Source: a bacterium
Lineage (GTDB): Bacteria; UBP15; UBA6099
DNA length: 64,000 nucleotides
Reading direction: 5' to 3'
Assembly (NCBI GenBank): GCA_041664945.1
Contig: JBAYJY010000004.1
Coordinates: 1,173-65,172, forward strand
The position numbers were made by a program, and so were the translations under genes. This document shows positions 9,504-55,825 of the stretch, piece by piece (positions within the stretch are counted from its first letter, which is position 1; the number at the start of each line of letters is the position of its first letter). The notes under the pieces were generated by a model. That model saw only the letters and a list, made by a program, of their open reading frames with translations. It was not told where the DNA came from and did not search any database.

Positions 9504-11284
9504 CCCCGCCGCCTGCCGGCGGAGATCCGTTCATATATCACCTGACATTTCCGGCGACCTGGCTTAAAGCGGGCCGCATCGTTTACGTTCCCCTGCCCTA
9601 CGGCGCGCAGGCGGCGACATACTATCCTCTGAACACTGAACTGTTTTATGCGTGGCTTATGGCGCCGCAAATGTCGGACCTGCTCGTGAACGCCGGCCAA
9701 GTCGCCTGCTGGCTGCTCGGCGCCCTTGCCGTGGCCGCTCTCGCCCGCGAAACCGGCATCGGCAAGCCGGGCGCCCTCGTCGGCGCGGCGGCGGTTATGC
9801 TCGCCCCAGGCCTGATCCAGCAGGCGACCGTTCCGCGCGTCGACATCGCCTTCGCGGCCTGGTTCCTAATCTCTCTCTACTTCGCGTTCCGCTGGGCCCG
9901 AACGCGCCGCGCTGGGCATCTCATTCTTTTCGGCGCCGCCCTCGGGTTGCTGATCGGCTCTAAATCCATCGGCCTAATGTACGCCATCCCTATCGCCCTG
10001 CTCTTCCTCTTTCAGCTTCGCGGGCGCGGCGCAAAACGCGCCGCTTCGGACCTCCTCGCCGTCTTCGCTCTCGCTCTCGCTTTCGGCGGCTTCTGGTATC
10101 TCCGAAACTGGACAGCGACAGGCAACCCGATCTTTCCGCTCGACGTCAATCTCTTCGGACTTCACATATTTCCGGGCGCCTACGGCCGCGACGCGATGCG
10201 CGCTTTCCACTCCGACAAACCCTTCGATCTGGCGAACATCGGCCTGTTCTTTCTCGGTTTCTGGCTCGAAGCGTTTCTGATATTTTCCGGCGGCGTTGCG
10301 ATGCTCCTGGCCTTCCCTCTCGGCCGCCGCCCCCTACGCGGCAGACTTTTCATTCTCGCAATGCCATGGGTCCTTATCGCCCTTTTCTGGTTCGCGAATC
10401 CGTATAACAACTTAACCAACGGCCGGTTCCTCTTTCCGGCATTTTTGCTTTTCGGCTATTACTCGGCGCTGATTATCGACAACGCGCAGGATAAAACCGC
10501 CAAAATCTGGATGTGGCTCGCGATTCCGGCGGTCATTGCAACAGGCTACCCTGCGATGTCCGTGAGCCTGACAGAGAACGCCGACCATCTTTTCCTGTTG
10601 TCCCGGAGTCTGTTCAGGCTCGCTTCCGGCCACGGCGGCGTTCTGCTCTCGCCGGCGGCGTCCGCTATGTTCCTTCTCGCGGACGCGCTCGCTTTCGCCG
10701 CTGTCGCCCTGTTGCTGAAGCGCAGGCCGATTTCACGCATTATCGCTGCGGCGGCTTGCGCCGTCTTTCTCGTCGCGGGCCTGAACGCATCGTGGAAATA
10801 TCAGCGCGACCATAAATACGATTGGTATAGAGGATTCGTGGCTGGAAACGCCTGGGCGCAACTCGACAAAACCACAAGCGGGAAATCGCTTCGAATCGCA
10901 TCCGTCGGCAACGAACGCTCTTACGGTCTGTTCGGAACCGGCTTTCGCCATGATGTCATGACCGTTAATATCGACCGCCACACGGACTGGCAGTTTCACG
11001 ATTACTGGCGGGCGGCGCGCCGCGCGGGCGAAAAAATGCCGTCTGACTCCGAGCGCCCTCAGTGGCACCGCGAGAACGGAACGCCCGTCGCGTGGATCGA
11101 CAATCTGCGCAGAAAAAAAATCGATCTCGTTTTCATTACGGCGCTCGAACCGATCGCGCTCGAGTCGATGGTTCACGACGATATTAATTTCCCTGTTGAA
11201 GCCGAATGGGCCGAAAAGCGGCCGGATTTGTTCAAGCTTCTTTACGCAAACAGCGAAGCGCGCATTTTTGCGTTCAAAAAATAG
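9425..11284 (+). CDS. Polytopic membrane protein, GT-C fold / family-39-like glycosyltransferase (ArnT/PMT-like)
   Basis: About 12 predicted TM segments followed by a soluble C-terminal domain. The motif style (...FIYHLTFPATWLKAG...YYPLNTELFYAWL...) is typical of PMT_2/ArnT-like proteins. As listed, the only available start is a TTG at 9425. Confidence 0.6.
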   Translation: MAARARRFFFVFAVLALAGILLWDFITPPPAGGDPFIYHLTFPATWLKAGRIVYVPLPYGAQAATYYPLNTELFYAWLMAPQMSDLLVNAGQVACWLLGALAVAALARETGIGKPGALVGAAAVMLAPGLIQQATVPRVDIAFAAWFLISLYFAFRWARTRRAGHLILFGAALGLLIGSKSIGLMYAIPIALLFLFQLRGRGAKRAASDLLAVFALALAFGGFWYLRNWTATGNPIFPLDVNLFGLHIFPGAYGRDAMRAFHSDKPFDLANIGLFFLGFWLEAFLIFSGGVAMLLAFPLGRRPLRGRLFILAMPWVLIALFWFANPYNNLTNGRFLFPAFLLFGYYSALIIDNAQDKTAKIWMWLAIPAVIATGYPAMSVSLTENADHLFLLSRSLFRLASGHGGVLLSPAASAMFLLADALAFAAVALLLKRRPISRIIAAAACAVFLVAGLNASWKYQRDHKYDWYRGFVAGNAWAQLDKTTSGKSLRIASVGNERSYGLFGTGFRHDVMTVNIDRHTDWQFHDYWRAARRAGEKMPSDSERPQWHRENGTPVAWIDNLRRKKIDLVFITALEPIALESMVHDDINFPVEAEWAEKRPDLFKLLYANSEARIFAFKK

Positions 11285-31303: not shown

Positions 31304-31888
31304 ATGAAACACTTGATCGTTTACAGCCATCCAAATCCTAAGAGTTTCAACCACGCAATTCTGGAAACATACACCGCAGCTCTGAAGCATAAAGGCGCCG
31401 AAATGCGGATTCGCGACTTATACACAATAGGCTTCTCCCCCGCTCTCGACGTTCGCGACTTCGATTACTACGCGCAACACAAAGTGCCGGATGAAATTCA
31501 GGCCGAGCAGGACAACATAAAATGGGCCGATTTCCTTACGTTCATATATCCGATCTGGTGGACCGGACTTCCCGCCATGGTCAAGGGCTACATAGACCGT
31601 GTTTTCACAAACGGGTTCGCCTTCGGAGTCGGCGCGGACGGCGTCAAGGGGTTGCTGCCGGGCAAAAAGGTTTTCATCTTCAACACAACCGGAACGCCCG
31701 ATCCGGTATACAAAGACAACGGAATGCTCAAGAGCCTGAGCCAGACTTCAGACGCGGGCATATTCGAGTTCTGCGGAATGGAAATGGCCGGTCATAAATA
31801 CTTCGCCGGCGTGCCCTATATAACCGACGCGGACCGCGCAGCCATGCTCGAAGAAGTTAAAGCTATCGCTGAAAACAACTCTCGCTGA
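31304..31888 (+). CDS. Flavodoxin-like-fold NAD(P)H:quinone oxidoreductase (NQO/KefF/MdaB-type)
   Basis: MKHLIVYSHPNPKSFNHAI...IYPIWWTGLPAMVKGYIDRVF... is typical of the Flavodoxin_2 family. Confidence 0.75.
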   Translation: MKHLIVYSHPNPKSFNHAILETYTAALKHKGAEMRIRDLYTIGFSPALDVRDFDYYAQHKVPDEIQAEQDNIKWADFLTFIYPIWWTGLPAMVKGYIDRVFTNGFAFGVGADGVKGLLPGKKVFIFNTTGTPDPVYKDNGMLKSLSQTSDAGIFEFCGMEMAGHKYFAGVPYITDADRAAMLEEVKAIAENNSR

Positions 31889-32013
31889 CGAATAATTCGG
31901 TTGTCATGAAACGGATTATTAAAGTCGTTTCTGCATCTTGTTACTATTCTGCGCTATCAGATTTAGAAGTCAATTTTCTGCTTTGAATCAAGTAACTTCA
32001 TCATCGTATTTTT

Positions 32014-32499
32014 CTATTTTACCTTCTTTCTTCTATGTTTGCTTTTTCTTTTTTTAGGTTTATTATTCTTAACTTTATCAAATAGTTTTTCTAATAATAT
32101 TTTATTTTTATAATGATATACAGGATAATTTATTATCGCAGCATATATAATAAAGATTATATTATAAGATTTAGTATCAGAATAGTTAATTTTATAATAG
32201 TGTTGAACAAATAATAATATTATAAATATTAATATTGTTACGGCAATAATATAAAGTTCTGATAATATTATAAAACGCAATTTTGGATATATTGTTGTTT
32301 GCAATTCGTCATTTCTGTATAAATATATAAACATCTGCGAAGTGAGAAAGGAACCATATACATATAGTGAAATGTATATAATATTAGAAGTACAATGTGA
32401 ATAATACAAAAGCGGAATCATAAGGAATAAAAACAATAATAAAGTCAATACATACCAATGTCTAAAAGTAAAGTTTTTCATATTTGTGTTCATTAGCAC
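32014..32499 (-). CDS. AT-rich cassette ORF 2: small 4-TM protein with a poly-Lys/Arg tail, unknown function
   Basis: 161 aa in DNA that is very AT-rich by eye, against the GC-rich flanks. Four hydrophobic helices rich in I/L/F/Y and a C-terminal KPKKRKSKHRRKKVK. Confidence 0.55.
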   Translation of the reverse strand: MLMNTNMKNFTFRHWYVLTLLLFLFLMIPLLYYSHCTSNIIYISLYVYGSFLTSQMFIYLYRNDELQTTIYPKLRFIILSELYIIAVTILIFIILLFVQHYYKINYSDTKSYNIIFIIYAAIINYPVYHYKNKILLEKLFDKVKNNKPKKRKSKHRRKKVK

Positions 32500-32578
32500 C
32501 TCTTATAAGCGCATTCATATGCATAAATGCTACTATCAATAGCTAGGGGATTCGTGGGACAACTTACTAATTACACCT

Positions 32579-32686
32579 TTTCTTTGGCATCGGTTCCGGT
32601 TTTTGCGGCTTCAATATACGCTAAAGCTTCTTTTCAAGGCGAGTTATGAAGCACTCGCTATCAATCCGGCCTTTTCGCGAGTCGCG
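32579..32686 (+). repeat. ~108-bp direct repeat, copy A (partner 33376-33482)
   Basis: About 86% identity to copy B (15 differences in 108). It covers the last codons plus about 80 nt downstream of a Gfo/Idh/MocA gene. Confidence 0.85.
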
Positions 32687-32754
32687 CAATCTCGCGATTC
32701 GGGCCATCCATCCATATTACTCACTATATCGCTGTCCGTCAACTGGGCTCCATT
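32644..32754 (-). pseudogene. Orphan C-terminal remnant of a Gfo/Idh/MocA oxidoreductase paralog
   Basis: The minus-strand reading NGAQLTDSDIVSNMDGWPESRDCATREKAGLIASAS* aligns with the end of the intact gene (...TGSQPITNADEAVANMRLLDAIREKAGL*). It is bounded upstream by an in-frame TGA. Confidence 0.5.
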
Positions 32755-32899
32755 TCATATATTATCCATTGTCTGTCTTAATTGAGTAAGGCGTCCCCTG
32801 AATCCCTAATCCCTGAACCCCCTGAATCCCAGCAATGTTCATTAAAAAATAGCGCACATAGAGTATTTTTTACGAAATCGATCAGTTAAACGTATTAGT

Positions 32900-33271
32900 T
32901 TAATGAATAATTATATAAATTACGTCATAAATTAGTATAATAGTAAATATTAAAATCGGAAATGAAACAATCATTAATAATATTATATTAAAATATTTTT
33001 TGCAGGTTACCTTTAATTTATTCATGTTGAGATCGTCAATATCGTCATTTTTATAAAATAATTTAATAAATTTCCAAGGTATAACTGGGTTAGTGCGATA
33101 CTTGTTAATGTCATTTTCATTTATATTATAATGTTCTCCGTAATGTTTTAACAAATATTCGATAAATACAATTGTGTTATATTTTAGTCGATTGAGCAAA
33201 ACAATTAAAATTATTACGTATATTGTCCAGACGTATGGAAACCAATTATGTTCCGGCGCTCTCATATGCAT
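32900..33271 (-). CDS. AT-rich cassette ORF 1: small 2-TM protein, unknown function
   Basis: 123 aa in very AT-rich DNA, with N- and C-terminal hydrophobic helices flanking a charged N/K/D-rich middle. Confidence 0.5.
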   Translation of the reverse strand: MHMRAPEHNWFPYVWTIYVIILIVLLNRLKYNTIVFIEYLLKHYGEHYNINENDINKYRTNPVIPWKFIKLFYKNDDIDDLNMNKLKVTCKKYFNIILLMIVSFPILIFTIILIYDVIYIIIH

Positions 33272-33375
33272 TCAGCCAGAGTAACATATTCAAATTTTAT
33301 GATCGATCTGATAATCGTATCAATAAAGTGAAATAATCTTACGTATTCGGAGGACATCCTTGCTTTATTACCCCG

Positions 33376-33482
33376 TTTCTTTGGCTTTGTCCCCGGTTTT
33401 TACGGCTTCAATATACGCTCAAGCTTCTTTTCAAGCAGAGTTATAAAACGCTCGCTATAATCCGGCTTTTTCGCGAATCGCG
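33376..33482 (+). repeat. ~108-bp direct repeat, copy B (overlaps the 3' end of the intact oxidoreductase gene)
   Basis: See 32579-32686. Confidence 0.85.
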
Positions 33483-34474
33483 TCGAGGAGTCGCATATTG
33501 GCGACAGCTTCGTCGGCGTTCGTGATCGGCTGGCTCCCGGTTCGGACCGCCTCGCAGAACGCTTCAAGTTGCGCGTGATATGAAGTTATAGACGGTACGC
33601 GTATGTTGTGGACCTTCAGCCCTTCCCGGTGGATGATCATATAAATGTCGACAACGATCTTGCCGGTCTGCACGGCGGGATTGAACGGCGACATGATATA
33701 AATTTCGCCTTTGGTTCCCTTTATGCGGGCGGACATCGGCAGGTATCTCACGAGGCTGCCGTGTATCTCGGCGTCGATTCCATTCTCGAATTTGAGATTC
33801 GCGCGGATCGTGCCGTCCACGCCCGAGCGCGTGAGTTTCGCGCGCGCCGCGGTCACCGTCGCCTCGTCGCAGCCCGCTATCCAGCGCGCGAAGTTGACCG
33901 GGTAGCATCCGATGTCCAACAGCGCGCCGCCCGCGAGACTTTTGCTGAACTGCACCTTGCTTTTGTCCATGAGCGGCACGCCGTGCACGGCGAAAATATG
34001 CTGAACTTCTCCAATGCCGCCGGACCGCACTATACTCTCAACTCTCGCGGCGAACGGATGGTAACGGTAGTGAAACGCCTCGGCGAATATTTTCCCGGTC
34101 TCTTTCACCTTCGCGGCGATCGCGCGCGCTTCATCCGCGTTGACGGCCACCGGCTTTTCGCACAACACATGTTTGCCGGCCTCCAGCGAGCGGATGGCCC
34201 ATTCGGCGTGCATGGACACCGGAAGCGGTATGAAAACGCAGTCGATTTCGGGATCGGCGAGCAGTCGCTCGTACTCGCCGTAAGCTTCAGGAATGCCGTG
34301 TTCCGCGGCGTAGCGGGCAGCTTTCTTCAGATCCCGAGAGGCGATCGCCAGCAATTCCACGCACGGCGTTTTCTTGATCGGCGGCAGAAAAGCGTATTCG
34401 TTCACGCTCGCGGTGGAGAGAATTCCGAATCTCAAATTTTCCATAGCGCTCCCCGGCATATTGTCGCGGCTCAA
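33455..34474 (-). CDS. Gfo/Idh/MocA-family NAD(P)-dependent oxidoreductase
   Basis: N-terminal Rossmann region LRFGILSTASVNEYAFLPPI..., the EKP motif (VLCEKPVAV), and a C-terminal alpha/beta domain. The likely true start is the MENLRFG Met at 34444. Confidence 0.85.
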   Translation of the reverse strand: MSRDNMPGSAMENLRFGILSTASVNEYAFLPPIKKTPCVELLAIASRDLKKAARYAAEHGIPEAYGEYERLLADPEIDCVFIPLPVSMHAEWAIRSLEAGKHVLCEKPVAVNADEARAIAAKVKETGKIFAEAFHYRYHPFAARVESIVRSGGIGEVQHIFAVHGVPLMDKSKVQFSKSLAGGALLDIGCYPVNFARWIAGCDEATVTAARAKLTRSGVDGTIRANLKFENGIDAEIHGSLVRYLPMSARIKGTKGEIYIMSPFNPAVQTGKIVVDIYMIIHREGLKVHNIRVPSITSYHAQLEAFCEAVRTGSQPITNADEAVANMRLLDAIREKAGL

Positions 34475-35013: not shown

Positions 35014-36213
35014 TTATCTCACATAAATCGGGTTCGAGAAAATCCACTGGATGCTTTTCTTGCCCGGCAGATACGCCTCGACCCGGTAGGCGCCGCGCTC
35101 CGTGAGTTCAATCTTCATCGCCCTGCCCGTCTCCTCTTTGTAAACAGCGCCGTCTTTCAACAACAGGATTTTGGCGTCTTTCGGAACGCCGATTTCCATA
35201 GTAGACGGCGTTTTCGGATCGAGTCTGAATTCGTCGCCCATGATGGCGGTGTTCTTGCCGTCCGAGGCGATGAAATAAAAGCCGCGGCAGGGAGCGAAAG
35301 TGTCGAAGCAGACATAGCCGTGGCCGCTCCTGATCGCGCGGTAAATTTCGGGCTGGCTCAGTTCCATCAGAAAGAGATGCGTGCCCACCAATCCGTAACT
35401 GCGCTCGTATGCGTCGAGCTGAAAGCCGTTATAGACAACGTTTTCGTGCGAATCGTTCGCGGCGACGCCGGGCGCGCGCTGTTTCTTCTGCGCTAAGTCC
35501 CACGCTTTGAAATAGACGACCGGCTTGTCGAGGATGCTGCGCCAGACGCGTTCCGGGTCTTTCTCCAGATAGGGAATTAGCGCGATAGTCTTGTCGATCT
35601 TTCCGTCGAGTATGGCGTCGTAGTGCGTGTTGTAGATTTCCATCGCGTCCCAGCCGGAAGCGGACCAGTCGGTGTGCTCCTCGACGTGGCCGAGAATGGC
35701 GAGCCCGCCCTGCTTGTGAACGTCGTCAATAACTTTCTGCAGCTTGCCGGAAGCGACAGTCTCCTGCAGGTTGATTCCGAGCACGACGCCGCCGGTTTCA
35801 AGGTTGATCTCCTGTCCGGGCATGAAAAAAACGCCGCCGTGCATTCCGCGCAGCCCGTGGTTGACCGAATACGGAGACGGGTGGTCAGTCATAAGAACAA
35901 AATTCACGCCCGCTGTCTGCGCGGCCTGCACGATGCGTGACACCGAGCCTTCGCTGTCGTGCGAGAGATAGGAGTGCGCGTGTATCACCCCTTTGAAATC
36001 GCCGTAGCCCATCGCCTCGATCGGCGACTCGATGCCCGCGGGCGCGCCCGCCGGGTTGATCGCCGGATTCGTCGGCGCCGGAATTCCGCGCGCAGGCCCT
36101 TCCGCCTTCTTGCCGGATGCGCCGGCGGATGCCGCCAAGATCAAAATCGATGCCGCCGCGATTGTCAGCGCTCTCAATCCAAGTTGTCTCTTCATGTCAC
36201 TCTCCTGCCTCAT
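35014..36213 (-). CDS. Secreted PHP-domain (CehA/McbA-like) metallo-phosphoesterase
   Basis: Signal peptide. FKGVIHAHSYLSHDSEG...VNFVLMTDHP...ILGHVEEH... are PHP His motifs. Confidence 0.7.
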   Translation of the reverse strand: MRQESDMKRQLGLRALTIAAASILILAASAGASGKKAEGPARGIPAPTNPAINPAGAPAGIESPIEAMGYGDFKGVIHAHSYLSHDSEGSVSRIVQAAQTAGVNFVLMTDHPSPYSVNHGLRGMHGGVFFMPGQEINLETGGVVLGINLQETVASGKLQKVIDDVHKQGGLAILGHVEEHTDWSASGWDAMEIYNTHYDAILDGKIDKTIALIPYLEKDPERVWRSILDKPVVYFKAWDLAQKKQRAPGVAANDSHENVVYNGFQLDAYERSYGLVGTHLFLMELSQPEIYRAIRSGHGYVCFDTFAPCRGFYFIASDGKNTAIMGDEFRLDPKTPSTMEIGVPKDAKILLLKDGAVYKEETGRAMKIELTERGAYRVEAYLPGKKSIQWIFSNPIYVR

Positions 36214-37165
36214 TTCGATTTATGGATTCATTATACTTTATATCGGCTTCATTAAAAATGCTGACTGATTTCGGGGCCTTGCACTCGACAATTGTGTAGC
36301 CGGGCGCTGTGCCCGGGCTGCCCGCCATGTAAATCGGAATGCCGTAAATCGAGTCGCGTATGAAATGATGGCCGTGTCCGAATATTGCCGCCGCCACATT
36401 TTCCTTGTTGGCTTCGAGAATTTTGAAAATGCGATCCGCAGCCGGTATCATATGGCCGCCTTTCATCAATTTCGTGACCACCGGCGTCGCCGGATAATGG
36501 TGGAAAAACAGAATCGCGGGACGCCCGCGCTTAAGCTGCGCTTCGAGCCAATCCAGTTGCGCATTGTCGAACCCGCCGAGCCACGAATCGGAATGGCTGG
36601 TCGCCTTGCTCGAAGAATCCAGCGCGATTATTGTGAATCCGCCGTTGTCGAACGAATAGTAGAGCCCCGGCATAGAACCGATCTCTTTGCGCGATTCGAG
36701 CATGATTTTCTCGATCTTCTGCCTTTTTATGGACGGATTCCACATGACATCCCAGTAAAACTCATGATTCCCCAACACGTCGTAATATGGAATTTTCACA
36801 TTGTCGCGCACGGTTTTGTTATATAGATCGAGGATGGGAATCGGCTTTTTATCGGGTCCCAAGTATTTCTCGGCGCCATGCCGGCCGGGCAGAAAAAGCT
36901 GGTCCACCGAGTCGCCGAGGTTGATGATGAAATCGAGCGCCGGCTTATGCTCGCCCATCGCCTTCAACACTTTGACGAACGCCTTGTTGTGCGGGTCGTC
37001 CGGGTCCGGCCTCGTATGAGCGTCGCTCAAAACGCCGAAATAGAAAACCGGTTTGTCTGTTTCCCCGGCGGCGAACGCGGCGGTTGCGGCAAACAGCGAT
37101 AAAATGATGATTAGAGTTCCGAGCGTTGAGTAGAGTTTTCGCATTAGGTCTCCCTGCGCCTGCAT
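36197..37165 (-). CDS. Secreted calcineurin-like metallophosphoesterase
   Basis: All five motifs are present: VLSDAHT, GDSVDQ, GNHEF, FFHH and GHGHH. Signal peptide. Confidence 0.85.
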   Translation of the reverse strand: MQAQGDLMRKLYSTLGTLIIILSLFAATAAFAAGETDKPVFYFGVLSDAHTRPDPDDPHNKAFVKVLKAMGEHKPALDFIINLGDSVDQLFLPGRHGAEKYLGPDKKPIPILDLYNKTVRDNVKIPYYDVLGNHEFYWDVMWNPSIKRQKIEKIMLESRKEIGSMPGLYYSFDNGGFTIIALDSSSKATSHSDSWLGGFDNAQLDWLEAQLKRGRPAILFFHHYPATPVVTKLMKGGHMIPAADRIFKILEANKENVAAAIFGHGHHFIRDSIYGIPIYMAGSPGTAPGYTIVECKAPKSVSIFNEADIKYNESINRNEAGE

Positions 37166-55238: not shown

Positions 55239-55372
55239 GAGTCCGGGATTGCTTCGTCGCTACGCTCCTCGCAATGACGTTTTTCTTTATTTTCTTTCGC
55301 TATATTCTGTATTCTGTATTCTGTTTTTATGCTTTTCCCTGTCTACTGTTTGCTGTCTGCTGTCTACTGCCT
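55239..55372 (+). repeat. Composite intergenic element: ~40-bp palindromic head plus a T/C-rich tract with short tandem repeats
   Basis: Head GAGTCCGGGATTGCTTCGTCGCTACGCTCCTCGCAATGACG, then TTTTTCTTTATTTTCTTTCGC, (ATTCTGT)x3, and CTGTCTACTG/CTGTCTGCTGTCTACTGC. Confidence 0.8.
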
Positions 55373-55825
55373 TTAAACAGTTATTTCCACTACCTTCTGA
55401 AAGCTGCTTACATAATAATATTTCTCAATTTCGATTTTCATCAGGACAGTAGTCGGAACGTCGAGGAATCCGGCGAGATGCGGATGGCGGGCAAGAAAGG
55501 CGAGCTTGAAACCGTCAAATTCGTCAGGCGTCGCCTCGGAAGCTTTCCCGATCGCTGTGACGGCTACCGCATCGCTGAAGTCGGCGGCCTGGTTGGACCG
55601 GCTGTCGATCAGCATCGCCACGCGCGGGTTCTCAATCATGTTGTTGTGCTTGCGGGTTCCGCGCTTTGTAGCGAATAGCAGACAGGCGAGATCGTCCGTC
55701 GCCGCGCAGCCGACGAGACTCGTGTAAGGTCCATCGCTCTCGCTGTCGCGCGTTGCAAGAACGCCAAGCTGCTGTTTTGAGAATAATTCCTTCAGATCCT
55801 TCTTTGCGTCGGAGACTTTTGTCAT
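55373..55825 (-). CDS. Pyridoxamine 5'-phosphate oxidase-family FMN-binding (split-barrel) protein
   Basis: ...QQLGVLATRDSESDGPYTSLVGCAAT...LFATKRGTRKHNNMIENPRVAMLID... fits the PNPOx-like fold pattern. Confidence 0.7.
   Translation of the reverse strand: MTKVSDAKKDLKELFSKQQLGVLATRDSESDGPYTSLVGCAATDDLACLLFATKRGTRKHNNMIENPRVAMLIDSRSNQAADFSDAVAVTAIGKASEATPDEFDGFKLAFLARHPHLAGFLDVPTTVLMKIEIEKYYYVSSFQKVVEITV

Follow-up and report, generated by a model that had tools for sequence, protein, structure and literature searches.

Decayed transposon copies and two orphan genes in a small AT-rich islet downstream of a Gfo/Idh/MocA oxidoreductase gene

In the stretch of DNA analysed here (the window: 64 kb of contig JBAYJY010000004.1, from a bacterium of the UBP15 lineage), 1566 nt lie between the stop codons of two convergent genes, one for a Gfo/Idh/MocA oxidoreductase (Gfo) and one for a flavodoxin-like protein. 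The interval holds two AT-rich segments (X1 and X2), each with one small open reading frame (ORF1 and ORF2) on the minus strand, and each ORF is preceded by one copy of a direct repeat. What is this repeat, does it do anything, and how did the two segments come to lie between these genes? A first-pass annotation, made from the sequence alone, saw in the repeat a duplicated oxidoreductase end with a conserved noncoding part, and in the locus a product of serial cassette acquisition. The data presented below point instead to a small islet that came in by horizontal transfer and was reworked by transposon copies now in decay, which makes the locus an ordinary scar left by gene gain and by the decay of transposons. 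The first-pass picture of a small foreign-looking islet shaped by mobile-element activity is supported in outline. Specifically, we consider it probable that the locus is an accessory islet of ~1.57 kb, made up of ~1.17 kb of AT-rich foreign DNA with two orphan genes and of two decayed TIRYT/RAYT-type copies, relic A adjoining Gfo and mini-element B between ORF1 and ORF2.

The direct repeat and the Y1 transposase family

The two copies of the repeat share about 115-146 nt with a period of 797 nt and an overall identity of 80-86%, distributed over two parts: positions 32570-32661 against 33367-33458 (85%) and positions 32663-32686 against 33459-33482 (92%, 22/24 nt). The longest exact run common to both copies is 17 nt, and two copies are observed in the window against 0 expected, so that the ~108-bp, ~86% identical direct repeat of the first-pass annotation is real. 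Its labels for the two copies were exchanged, the 33.4-kb copy being the one that sits on the true gene end. Beyond the right terminal inverted repeat (TIR) described below, into the ORF leaders, the similarity between the copies falls to chance level.

Scanning JGI metagenome contigs with the most conserved 26 nt of the repeat returned one other locus, L062, which derives from a different, lower-GC organism in the same sample. The homologous 115 nt (L062:1734-1848) are 87% identical to copy A and 84-86% identical to copy B at the nucleotide level, and they form the 3' end of a gene matching Pfam Y1_Tnp (PF01797, IS200-like; 2.8e-7) and, below the cut-off, NCBIfam NF047646 'REP-associated tyrosine transposase' (2.4e-15). 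An in-frame stop and a frameshift mark this L062 gene, too, as a pseudogene. The reconstructed L062 protein, used as query, retrieved a family of more than 8000 clusters of Y1_Tnp proteins of 220-230 aa, whose hosts include Verrucomicrobiota, Planctomycetota, Myxococcota, Bipolaricaulota and others, and whose C-terminal consensus is RRHERTGRPLGSxxFIxRLEKxLxRxLxPQKPGPKPK. Translated in the family frame, copy A reads ...SERFITLLEKKLERILKP*KPGTKPKKRGN and copy B reads RDSRKGR-IDSECFITRLEKKL*RILKPQKPEPMPKKRCN*, with an in-frame stop in each copy; tblastn against the family proteins gave E values from 0.002 down to 1e-8 for A, and down to 4e-9 for B. Because both copies translate into the family consensus, the part of the repeat described as conserved and noncoding is the C-terminus (last 33-40 codons) of a dead TIRYT/RAYT-type Y1 (HUH) tyrosine transposase, followed by its right TIR.

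The assignment of the right TIR relies on an intact comparison set of five family members in their genomic context (L063, L069, L077, L079 and L082). All five carry the motif TTCCGGGGACACCATAC ~45 nt before the ATG, and its reverse complement, GTATGGTGTCCCCGGAA, directly after the stop codon. The motif is the GGGGWSAS terminal inverted repeat by which TIRtrons, TIRYT genes bounded by a TIR on either side, are defined (Di Nocera et al. 2013, PMC3733652; Quentin et al. 2018, PMC6006769). The right TIR is retained in A, B and L062, and the mutual similarity of the three sequences ends exactly at its outer edge. In addition, the three 3' relics are roughly equidistant, with few changes specific to A and B, as would be expected if the event is old and took place shortly after the element had come in from an L062-like lineage.

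A reading of the repeat as coding on the plus strand (...PVFTASIYAQASFQAEL*) was rejected, the substitutions not being focused on third codon positions (by eye) and the minus-strand frame matching a real protein family.

As for a possible role, no conserved fold, covariation or compensatory changes were found in the repeat, and its folding energy lies at the shuffled mean (z = 0.06), indicating no unusual stability. A structured RNA, a terminator and an attC site were rejected on these grounds, and the att site or terminator proposed earlier for the conserved noncoding part gives way to transposase pseudogene debris. No recombinase Pfam match was found among the genes of window positions ~27.0-38.3 kb (~11 kb, reaching ~5 kb to either side), nor was IntI or attI found in this interval, and the entire 64 kb hold no other gene of the transposase family. 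The earlier remark that no integrase or transposase lies nearby therefore stands in that no intact gene was found, and fails in that the repeat is itself transposase-gene debris. The window contains no third repeat after ORF2 and no other copy anywhere, and viral contigs have none; in the JGI metagenome contigs the sole recurrence is the L062 pseudogene of another organism, with no further cassettes. Contigs of the two sequencing runs that hold the locus show neither deletion, excision or circle joints nor population variants. Since there is no structure, no further copy, no recombinase and no joint, we assign the repeat no function of its own and infer that it is debris. It is plausible that the ~146-nt repeats could occasionally delete ORF1 by homologous recombination.

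Some observations concern the family members themselves. All five intact members have a TTGAC-type -35 box and a -10-like hexamer that ends 6-7 nt before the ATG, and this closeness of the -10 box to the start codon suggests that their transposase mRNAs may be leaderless. In L063 the left TIR falls within the called 3' end of an upstream fucosidase gene. In a Myxococcales metagenome-assembled genome (L079, L080, L081; ~1-2200), a large RHS/YD-repeat toxin gene is directly followed by an intact TIRYT element whose TIRs are doubled at either end. The TIRYT pseudogene of L062 is surrounded by a mixed accessory region (L062:1-6010, Ga0172379_10002158) with genes for a TMEM43-like membrane protein, an Imm33-like immunity domain protein and a BRO-N protein, an AT-rich 96-aa two-helix ORF, and a 72-aa ORF that is HicB-like by look and has no Pfam match.

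Relic A, mini-element B and the host-gene patch

The positions of the two element copies and of the gene end that they share are as follows (window coordinates).

33342-33458, minus: relic A, a 5'-truncated TIRYT/RAYT-type transposase pseudogene (last ~33 codons) adjoining the Gfo stop, with homology to L062 and the family proteins
33342-33363, minus: right TIR of relic A, its post-stop motif matching the right TIR of the five intact members
32547-32806, minus: mini-element B, a 260-bp internally deleted TIRYT element between ORF1 and ORF2
32785-32806, minus: left TIR of B, a 22-nt arm that aligns with the left ends of the five intact elements
32742-32714, minus: leader of B, promoter-like TTGACG-17-TAATAT, aligned with the family leader
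32707-32687, minus: start of B, ATG GCC CGA ATC GCG AGA TTG, coding for MARIARL (family N-terminus MARIARV)
32686-32663, minus: Gfo patch of B, 24 nt
32662-32570, minus: C-terminal relic of B, IDSECFITRLEKKL*RILKPQKPEPMPKKRCN*, ~33-40 codons
32547-32568, minus: right TIR of B, a 22-nt arm
32807-32832, minus: partial tandem copies of the left TIR (GGGATTCAGGGGGTTCAGGGATTA), a G-tract motif, forming an inverted-repeat pair
33455-34474, minus: Gfo/Idh/MocA oxidoreductase gene (Pfam PF01408, PF22725, PF02894), probable ATG at 34444
33459-33487, minus: final ~24-28 coding nt of Gfo (AIREKAGL), a piece that also occurs inside B

Relic A lacks the 5' ~170 transposase codons and keeps only the right TIR. 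Mini-element B, in turn, is bounded by two TIR arms that are 82% complementary over 22 nt. Its left TIR sequence, TTCAGGGGACGCCTTAC (32802-32786), shows 0 mismatches to the family pattern, and its TIR core, GGGGACGC, agrees at 7/8 GGGGWSAS positions and is the same as in the intact member L069; doubled TIRs, as suggested for B by the adjacent tandem copies, also occur in the intact members L079 and L069. Downstream of the leader, the ATG of B lies 6-7 nt past TAATAT and the family start pattern ATGGC.CGAAT.GCG is present. The seven N-terminal codons are joined in frame to the C-terminal relic, the entire HUH/Tyr catalytic core being absent. As the TIR pair, the family leader and the MARIARL start surround the C-terminal relic, B is by its sequence a 260-bp, internally deleted TIRtron with both TIRs, similar to a miniature inverted-repeat transposable element (MITE). 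Given the absent HUH/Tyr core and the in-frame stops in the coding remnants, both window copies are to be read as relics and not as functional TIRYT members. The direct repeat from which the first-pass annotation started is simply the portion common to relic A and B.

The stretch upstream of this common portion in B had been read as a decayed 36-codon oxidoreductase remnant (...VSNM...). Upstream of the common ~24 nt, into the Gfo coding region, the similarity of the copies is at chance level, as 318/2000 shuffles score equally well, and the stretch aligns with the TIRYT left TIR, leader and start codon. The promoter proposed for the repeat fared differently: a promoter-like element does precede ORF2, but it belongs to the transposon leader and lies outside the 108-bp repeat.

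Of the supposed duplicated oxidoreductase end, only ~24 nt (REKAGL) are genuine Gfo 3' end common to both copies; the rest is transposase 3' end and right TIR. The Gfo C-terminus, ...ADEAVANMRLLDAIREKAGL, is native, being conserved in the orthologues L005 (DAIYEKAGM...) and L004 (DAIRDKTKA) and in haloarchaeal homologues (ADEAVANMRVIDALYESA). The patch of B, which starts exactly at the internal deletion junction, directly after MARIARL, matches A at 22/24 nt (92%), with L062 being ~56% identical to either. Since the same nucleotides encode the native, conserved Gfo C-terminus in A, the patch is host-gene sequence, which B received from the A junction or from a common ancestor of that junction; it is solely for this reason that a transposon origin of the 24 nt was rejected. 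The shared patch shows that A and B recombined with each other. Exact look-ups of the GTG-start Gfo product and of P0001 returned no record.

In the two closest Gfo orthologue loci the islet is absent. The L005 orthologue (72% amino acid identity) is followed by a convergent gene that overlaps the Gfo stop, and the L004 orthologue (52%) is likewise free of the islet. Downstream of Gfo in L004 (5100-6178), two small ORFs resemble a DUF4258/DUF2283-type toxin-antitoxin pair (translations, by eye), and the spot downstream of Gfo seems to gather accessory genes in relatives too.

The AT-rich genes and the origin of the islet

The remaining features of the locus are listed below.

32900-33271, minus: ORF1, 123 aa (121 aa from the second ATG), the sole ORF of X1
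32014-32493, minus: ORF2, 159 aa from an ATG with an AGAGG Shine-Dalgarno sequence; 161 aa from a GTG at 32499
32833-33341, minus: AT-rich segment X1, 24.8% GC, carrying ORF1 and a promoter-like site
33323-33294, minus: promoter-like site in X1, TTGATA-18-TAAAAT, upstream of ORF1
31889-32546, minus: AT-rich segment X2, 24.5% GC, carrying ORF2 and ending at the stop codon of the flavodoxin-like gene
31304-31888, plus: flavodoxin-like fold gene (NAD(P)H quinone reductase-type; Pfam PF02525, 2e-47), the convergent right border of the islet

Windowed GC bears out the two strongly AT-rich segments between GC-richer genes: over 150 nt the two segments drop as low as 13% and 17%, where the window as a whole averages 54.5%. 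The remaining low-GC patches of the window are ordinary short intergenic regions, and the composition of the islet is unmatched elsewhere in it. Rfam and tRNA scans of the entire window gave no match.

The claim of one small minus-strand ORF per segment was also confirmed. In ORF1 a polar central part is framed by hydrophobic helices at the N- and C-terminus. ORF2 is predicted to form four helices and closes with a highly basic C-terminal tail (KPKKRKSKHRRKKVK). The GC content of the ORFs is 21-24%. The stop-free run of each is longer than in 2000/2000 shuffles of its own segment. Because the open frames outlast every shuffle, ORF1 and ORF2 are, or recently were, genes.

Homologues were sought widely. 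A word-indexed search of 5.8 billion clusters returned only the two ORFs themselves, and a full HMMER search of ORF1 against 1.84 billion representatives found no homologue. Neither ORF matched Pfam, PHROGs, PADLOC or NCBIfam, and thus no immunity or toxin family, nor PDB sequences, BFVD, IMG/VR viral contigs, or phage and plasmid collections (tblastn); no relatives were found in the fetched loci or in the remaining window. Single-sequence AlphaFold models are helical and of low confidence (predicted template modelling score, pTM, 0.37), and Foldseek with these models gave nothing usable. As orphans in an islet that is absent from the two closest Gfo orthologue loci, ORF1 and ORF2 are non-core cargo, probably acquired horizontally from a very AT-rich source. 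The proposal of small membrane proteins as cargo holds in these two respects (orphan status and absence from the orthologue loci); as for its immunity-like or phage-derived part, no such family was matched. That they are accessory membrane proteins, for example for exclusion or immunity, is only a guess. Being located outside the TIR pairs, they are flanking DNA rather than transposon cargo, and with B taken out ORF1 and ORF2 would stand ~120 nt apart as a compact pair of genes.

The transposase promoter of B faces ORF2, 214 nt upstream of the ORF2 start, and no terminator was predicted between the two. At most, it is plausible that this outward-reading predicted promoter helps to transcribe ORF2.

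The islet that we consider probable could have arisen as follows. Two element copies in direct orientation would once have flanked ORF1, a full-length one downstream of Gfo and the second between the AT-rich genes. The copy downstream of Gfo would have lost its 5' part by a deletion against the Gfo end, leaving relic A, and the interior of B would later have been replaced by the Gfo patch and 3' relic from the A junction. This replacement may have started with priming in the homologous 3' part, as break repair or gene conversion. By another route, a tandem duplication reaching from the Gfo patch as far as codon 7 of B would have preceded a deletion between the repeated 3' ends.

Several points weigh against this account. 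The order of events is deduced, and none of the intermediates it calls for was seen. Of this genome, the 64 kb of the window were searched for a full-length transposase and further TIR copies. The three assemblies that carry the locus represent one strain and offer no within-species comparison. The in-frame fusion in B and a weak likeness of RDSRKGR to the family RxHxRTGR hint at a transposon-derived patch. Finally, promoter-like matches are common in AT-rich DNA, 19 being found against 9.1 expected.

A different history for B, which we regard as unlikely, is that it is an active, non-autonomous MITE-like mini-TIRtron which formed at the Gfo junction and was moved in trans, by a full-length TIRYT transposase, to its place between ORF1 and ORF2. 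The two TIRs with their 82% complementarity would suit such an element, as would the coincidence of its boundaries with the loss of similarity to A and L062 and the presence of a longer TIRYT copy in the same sample at similar depth. This last is a 1329-nt contig of sequencing run X1 (depth 6.6, about equal to that of this genome), which matches window 32687-32744, that is, the leader and start of B, at 84%, continues as MARIVVPGYAHHIT and is a longer, perhaps intact, TIRYT copy. Against mobility stand the single copy of B in the 64-kb window, with no more at >=80% identity in the contigs of that run, the fixed contexts that TIRYT genes occupy across many samples, and the report of TIR families in some genomes only (PMC3733652). 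In addition, the Gfo patch lies outside any TIR pair in A, and simple transposition leaves its presence between the TIRs of B unexplained.

We give little credence to a tandem duplication of one ~800-bp unit of repeat and ORF, followed by extremely fast divergence of the ORF while the repeat stayed similar. The 797-nt period and the nearly equal lengths of X1 and X2, once the neighbouring TIR DNA is included, are what it would predict, and there are weak colinear matches, among them a shared ATGCATATGA..GCGC 16-mer and a 37-aa stretch of 32% identity (E=0.03). Yet the similarity of ORF1 to ORF2 and of X1 to X2 is not above that of shuffled controls (protein p ~0.07-0.12, DNA p ~0.06), for which reason paralogy of the two ORFs was rejected, while the copies of the non-functional repeat have kept 80-86% identity. 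Neutral decay cannot have wiped out the coding part of a unit and left pseudogene debris standing, and the transposon left end is present in unit 2 only.

Serial site-specific integration, as put forward in the first-pass annotation, earns less credence still. Here the ~146-nt repeat would be an att site, and the cassettes would have entered as circles through a recombinase encoded elsewhere. The model draws on the direct repeats on either side of cassette 1, into which the final codons of the target gene extend, like the attL/attR of gene-3'-end islands, and on cassettes that are foreign-looking and unrelated to each other. It runs against a repeat that is recognisable as transposase debris with a TIR rather than a dedicated site and that lacks a conserved or unusually stable structure, against the absence of a third repeat after cassette 2 and of an integrase or recombinase within about 5 kb, and against the absence of other cassette-bearing copies in metagenome or viral contigs and of excision joints in the contigs of two runs. 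Nor does it predict a transposon left end in the left half of what had been called copy B.

The two AT-rich cassettes each start precisely where a right TIR ends on its outer side, which might be more than a coincidence of flanking DNA. In an improbable reading, foreign single-stranded DNA would be captured, or would land, at the right TIR, with an HUH enzyme acquiring genes in an ISCR/IS91-like or integron-like manner, the leaderless-type promoter of B expressing the orphan genes, and the ORFs forming a new class of membrane cargo, for example for phage exclusion or immunity.

Finally, a chimera in which AT-rich reads of another organism were joined at the repeat, as the extreme GC contrast and the Logan contig break inside the repeat at 33390 might suggest, is very unlikely and the least credible of all, because the same junctions and an identical islet sequence occur in three assemblies (the ENA assembly, the JGI/IMG contig and the Logan contig, from the groundwater metagenome run SRR6484324) at an even contig depth of 4.8-6.3, a 3717-nt Logan contig, 100% identical, runs from the flavodoxin gene through ORF2 and repeat B to ORF1, parts of ORF2 and of the junction at A turn up in a second sequencing run (2022), and no exact run >17 nt is common to the copies, so that k-mer assemblers would not confuse them.

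Two further places in the window deserve mention. At 36130-36224, where the start of a 399-aa PHP-like gene overlaps the end of a Metallophos gene, 5/6 differences between the window and the same-strain ENA assembly fall within 95 nt; the run X1 Logan contig has the same five variants, and the cluster could be a local hotspot of strain variation or an assembly consensus effect. The AT-rich intergenic region at 55273-55439 contains simple heptamer-type repeats, (TATTCTG)n and CTGTCTRCTG-like runs, which are 80-82% similar to L062:8607-8666 and 10014-10095, probably through low complexity and not as a shared element.

Comparison with known systems

Orphan-module arrays downstream of polymorphic toxin genes, another model raised in the first-pass annotation, repeat the toxin gene 3' end before orphan pairs. 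Here the upstream gene is an ordinary Gfo/Idh/MocA oxidoreductase conserved to haloarchaea, of which only 24 nt are repeated, and the model does not apply. Integron cassettes come closer in appearance, with small, promoter-poor orphan ORFs in series, each beside a repeated ~100-nt element. However, cassette arrays have attC 3' of each cassette and intI/attI nearby, whereas here the repeat precedes each ORF, there is no attC-like imperfect palindrome or stable fold, and neither of these genes or sites lies in the interval examined.

Cis-mobilizable elements and integrative and conjugative elements accrete at the 3' end of a gene, for example fda in Streptococcus thermophilus. The likeness is that direct repeats including a housekeeping gene end bracket small, recombinase-less cargo. 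The difference is that the repeat here is transposon debris, with no evidence of site-specific recombination; att duplication leaves repeats at both ends of each segment, and comes with a recombinase, as opposed to the two repeats for two segments found here. A recombinase acting in trans from elsewhere in the genome is possible. In sum, the absence of a recombinase within about 5 kb, of a third repeat and of excision joints speaks against serial site-specific cassette acquisition.

The RAYT/REPIN systems and PATEs (MITE-like deletion derivatives of IS200/IS605) share with the locus the Y1 HUH superfamily and short, non-autonomous derivatives reduced to the two ends of the element. B resembles a MITE or PATE in its size (260 bp), its TIRs and its lack of a transposase. 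It differs in that its flanks are simple TIRs and not REP hairpin doublets, and in that one copy is present, in the window and the run X1 contigs, versus tens to hundreds, no evidence of mobility having been found.

With respect to what this locus teaches, an apparent conserved regulatory or att element beside duplicated gene ends can be pseudogene debris from a widespread, little-studied transposase family of environmental bacteria. The host-gene patch in B is direct evidence of such relics recombining with each other, which can reshuffle neighbouring gene ends, and in the leader of B the promoter of a dead transposase may be driving an orphan gene that was acquired. ORF1 and ORF2, with no relative in about 15 billion proteins, are a clean example of 'dark' accessory genes from groundwater bacteria; beyond this, nothing yet marks them out.

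The closest match is to TIRtrons. The window copies have the same C-terminal peptide consensus and promoter-like leader as TIRYT genes, and a GGGGAC[A/G]C TIR core whose spacing from start and stop equals that in the five intact members; GGGGWSAS TIRs and homology of the coding remnants are present, and the Y1/HUH transposase gene itself is missing. As for the subclass, the family proteins of 220-230 aa lack the helix-turn-helix extension of Quentin's subclass 2.1. The window copies differ from TIRtrons in being non-functional and in that B contains 24 nt of the neighbouring host gene. In conclusion, what is new here is a TIR-complete, 260-bp deletion derivative which carries a host-gene patch and is placed before an orphan gene.

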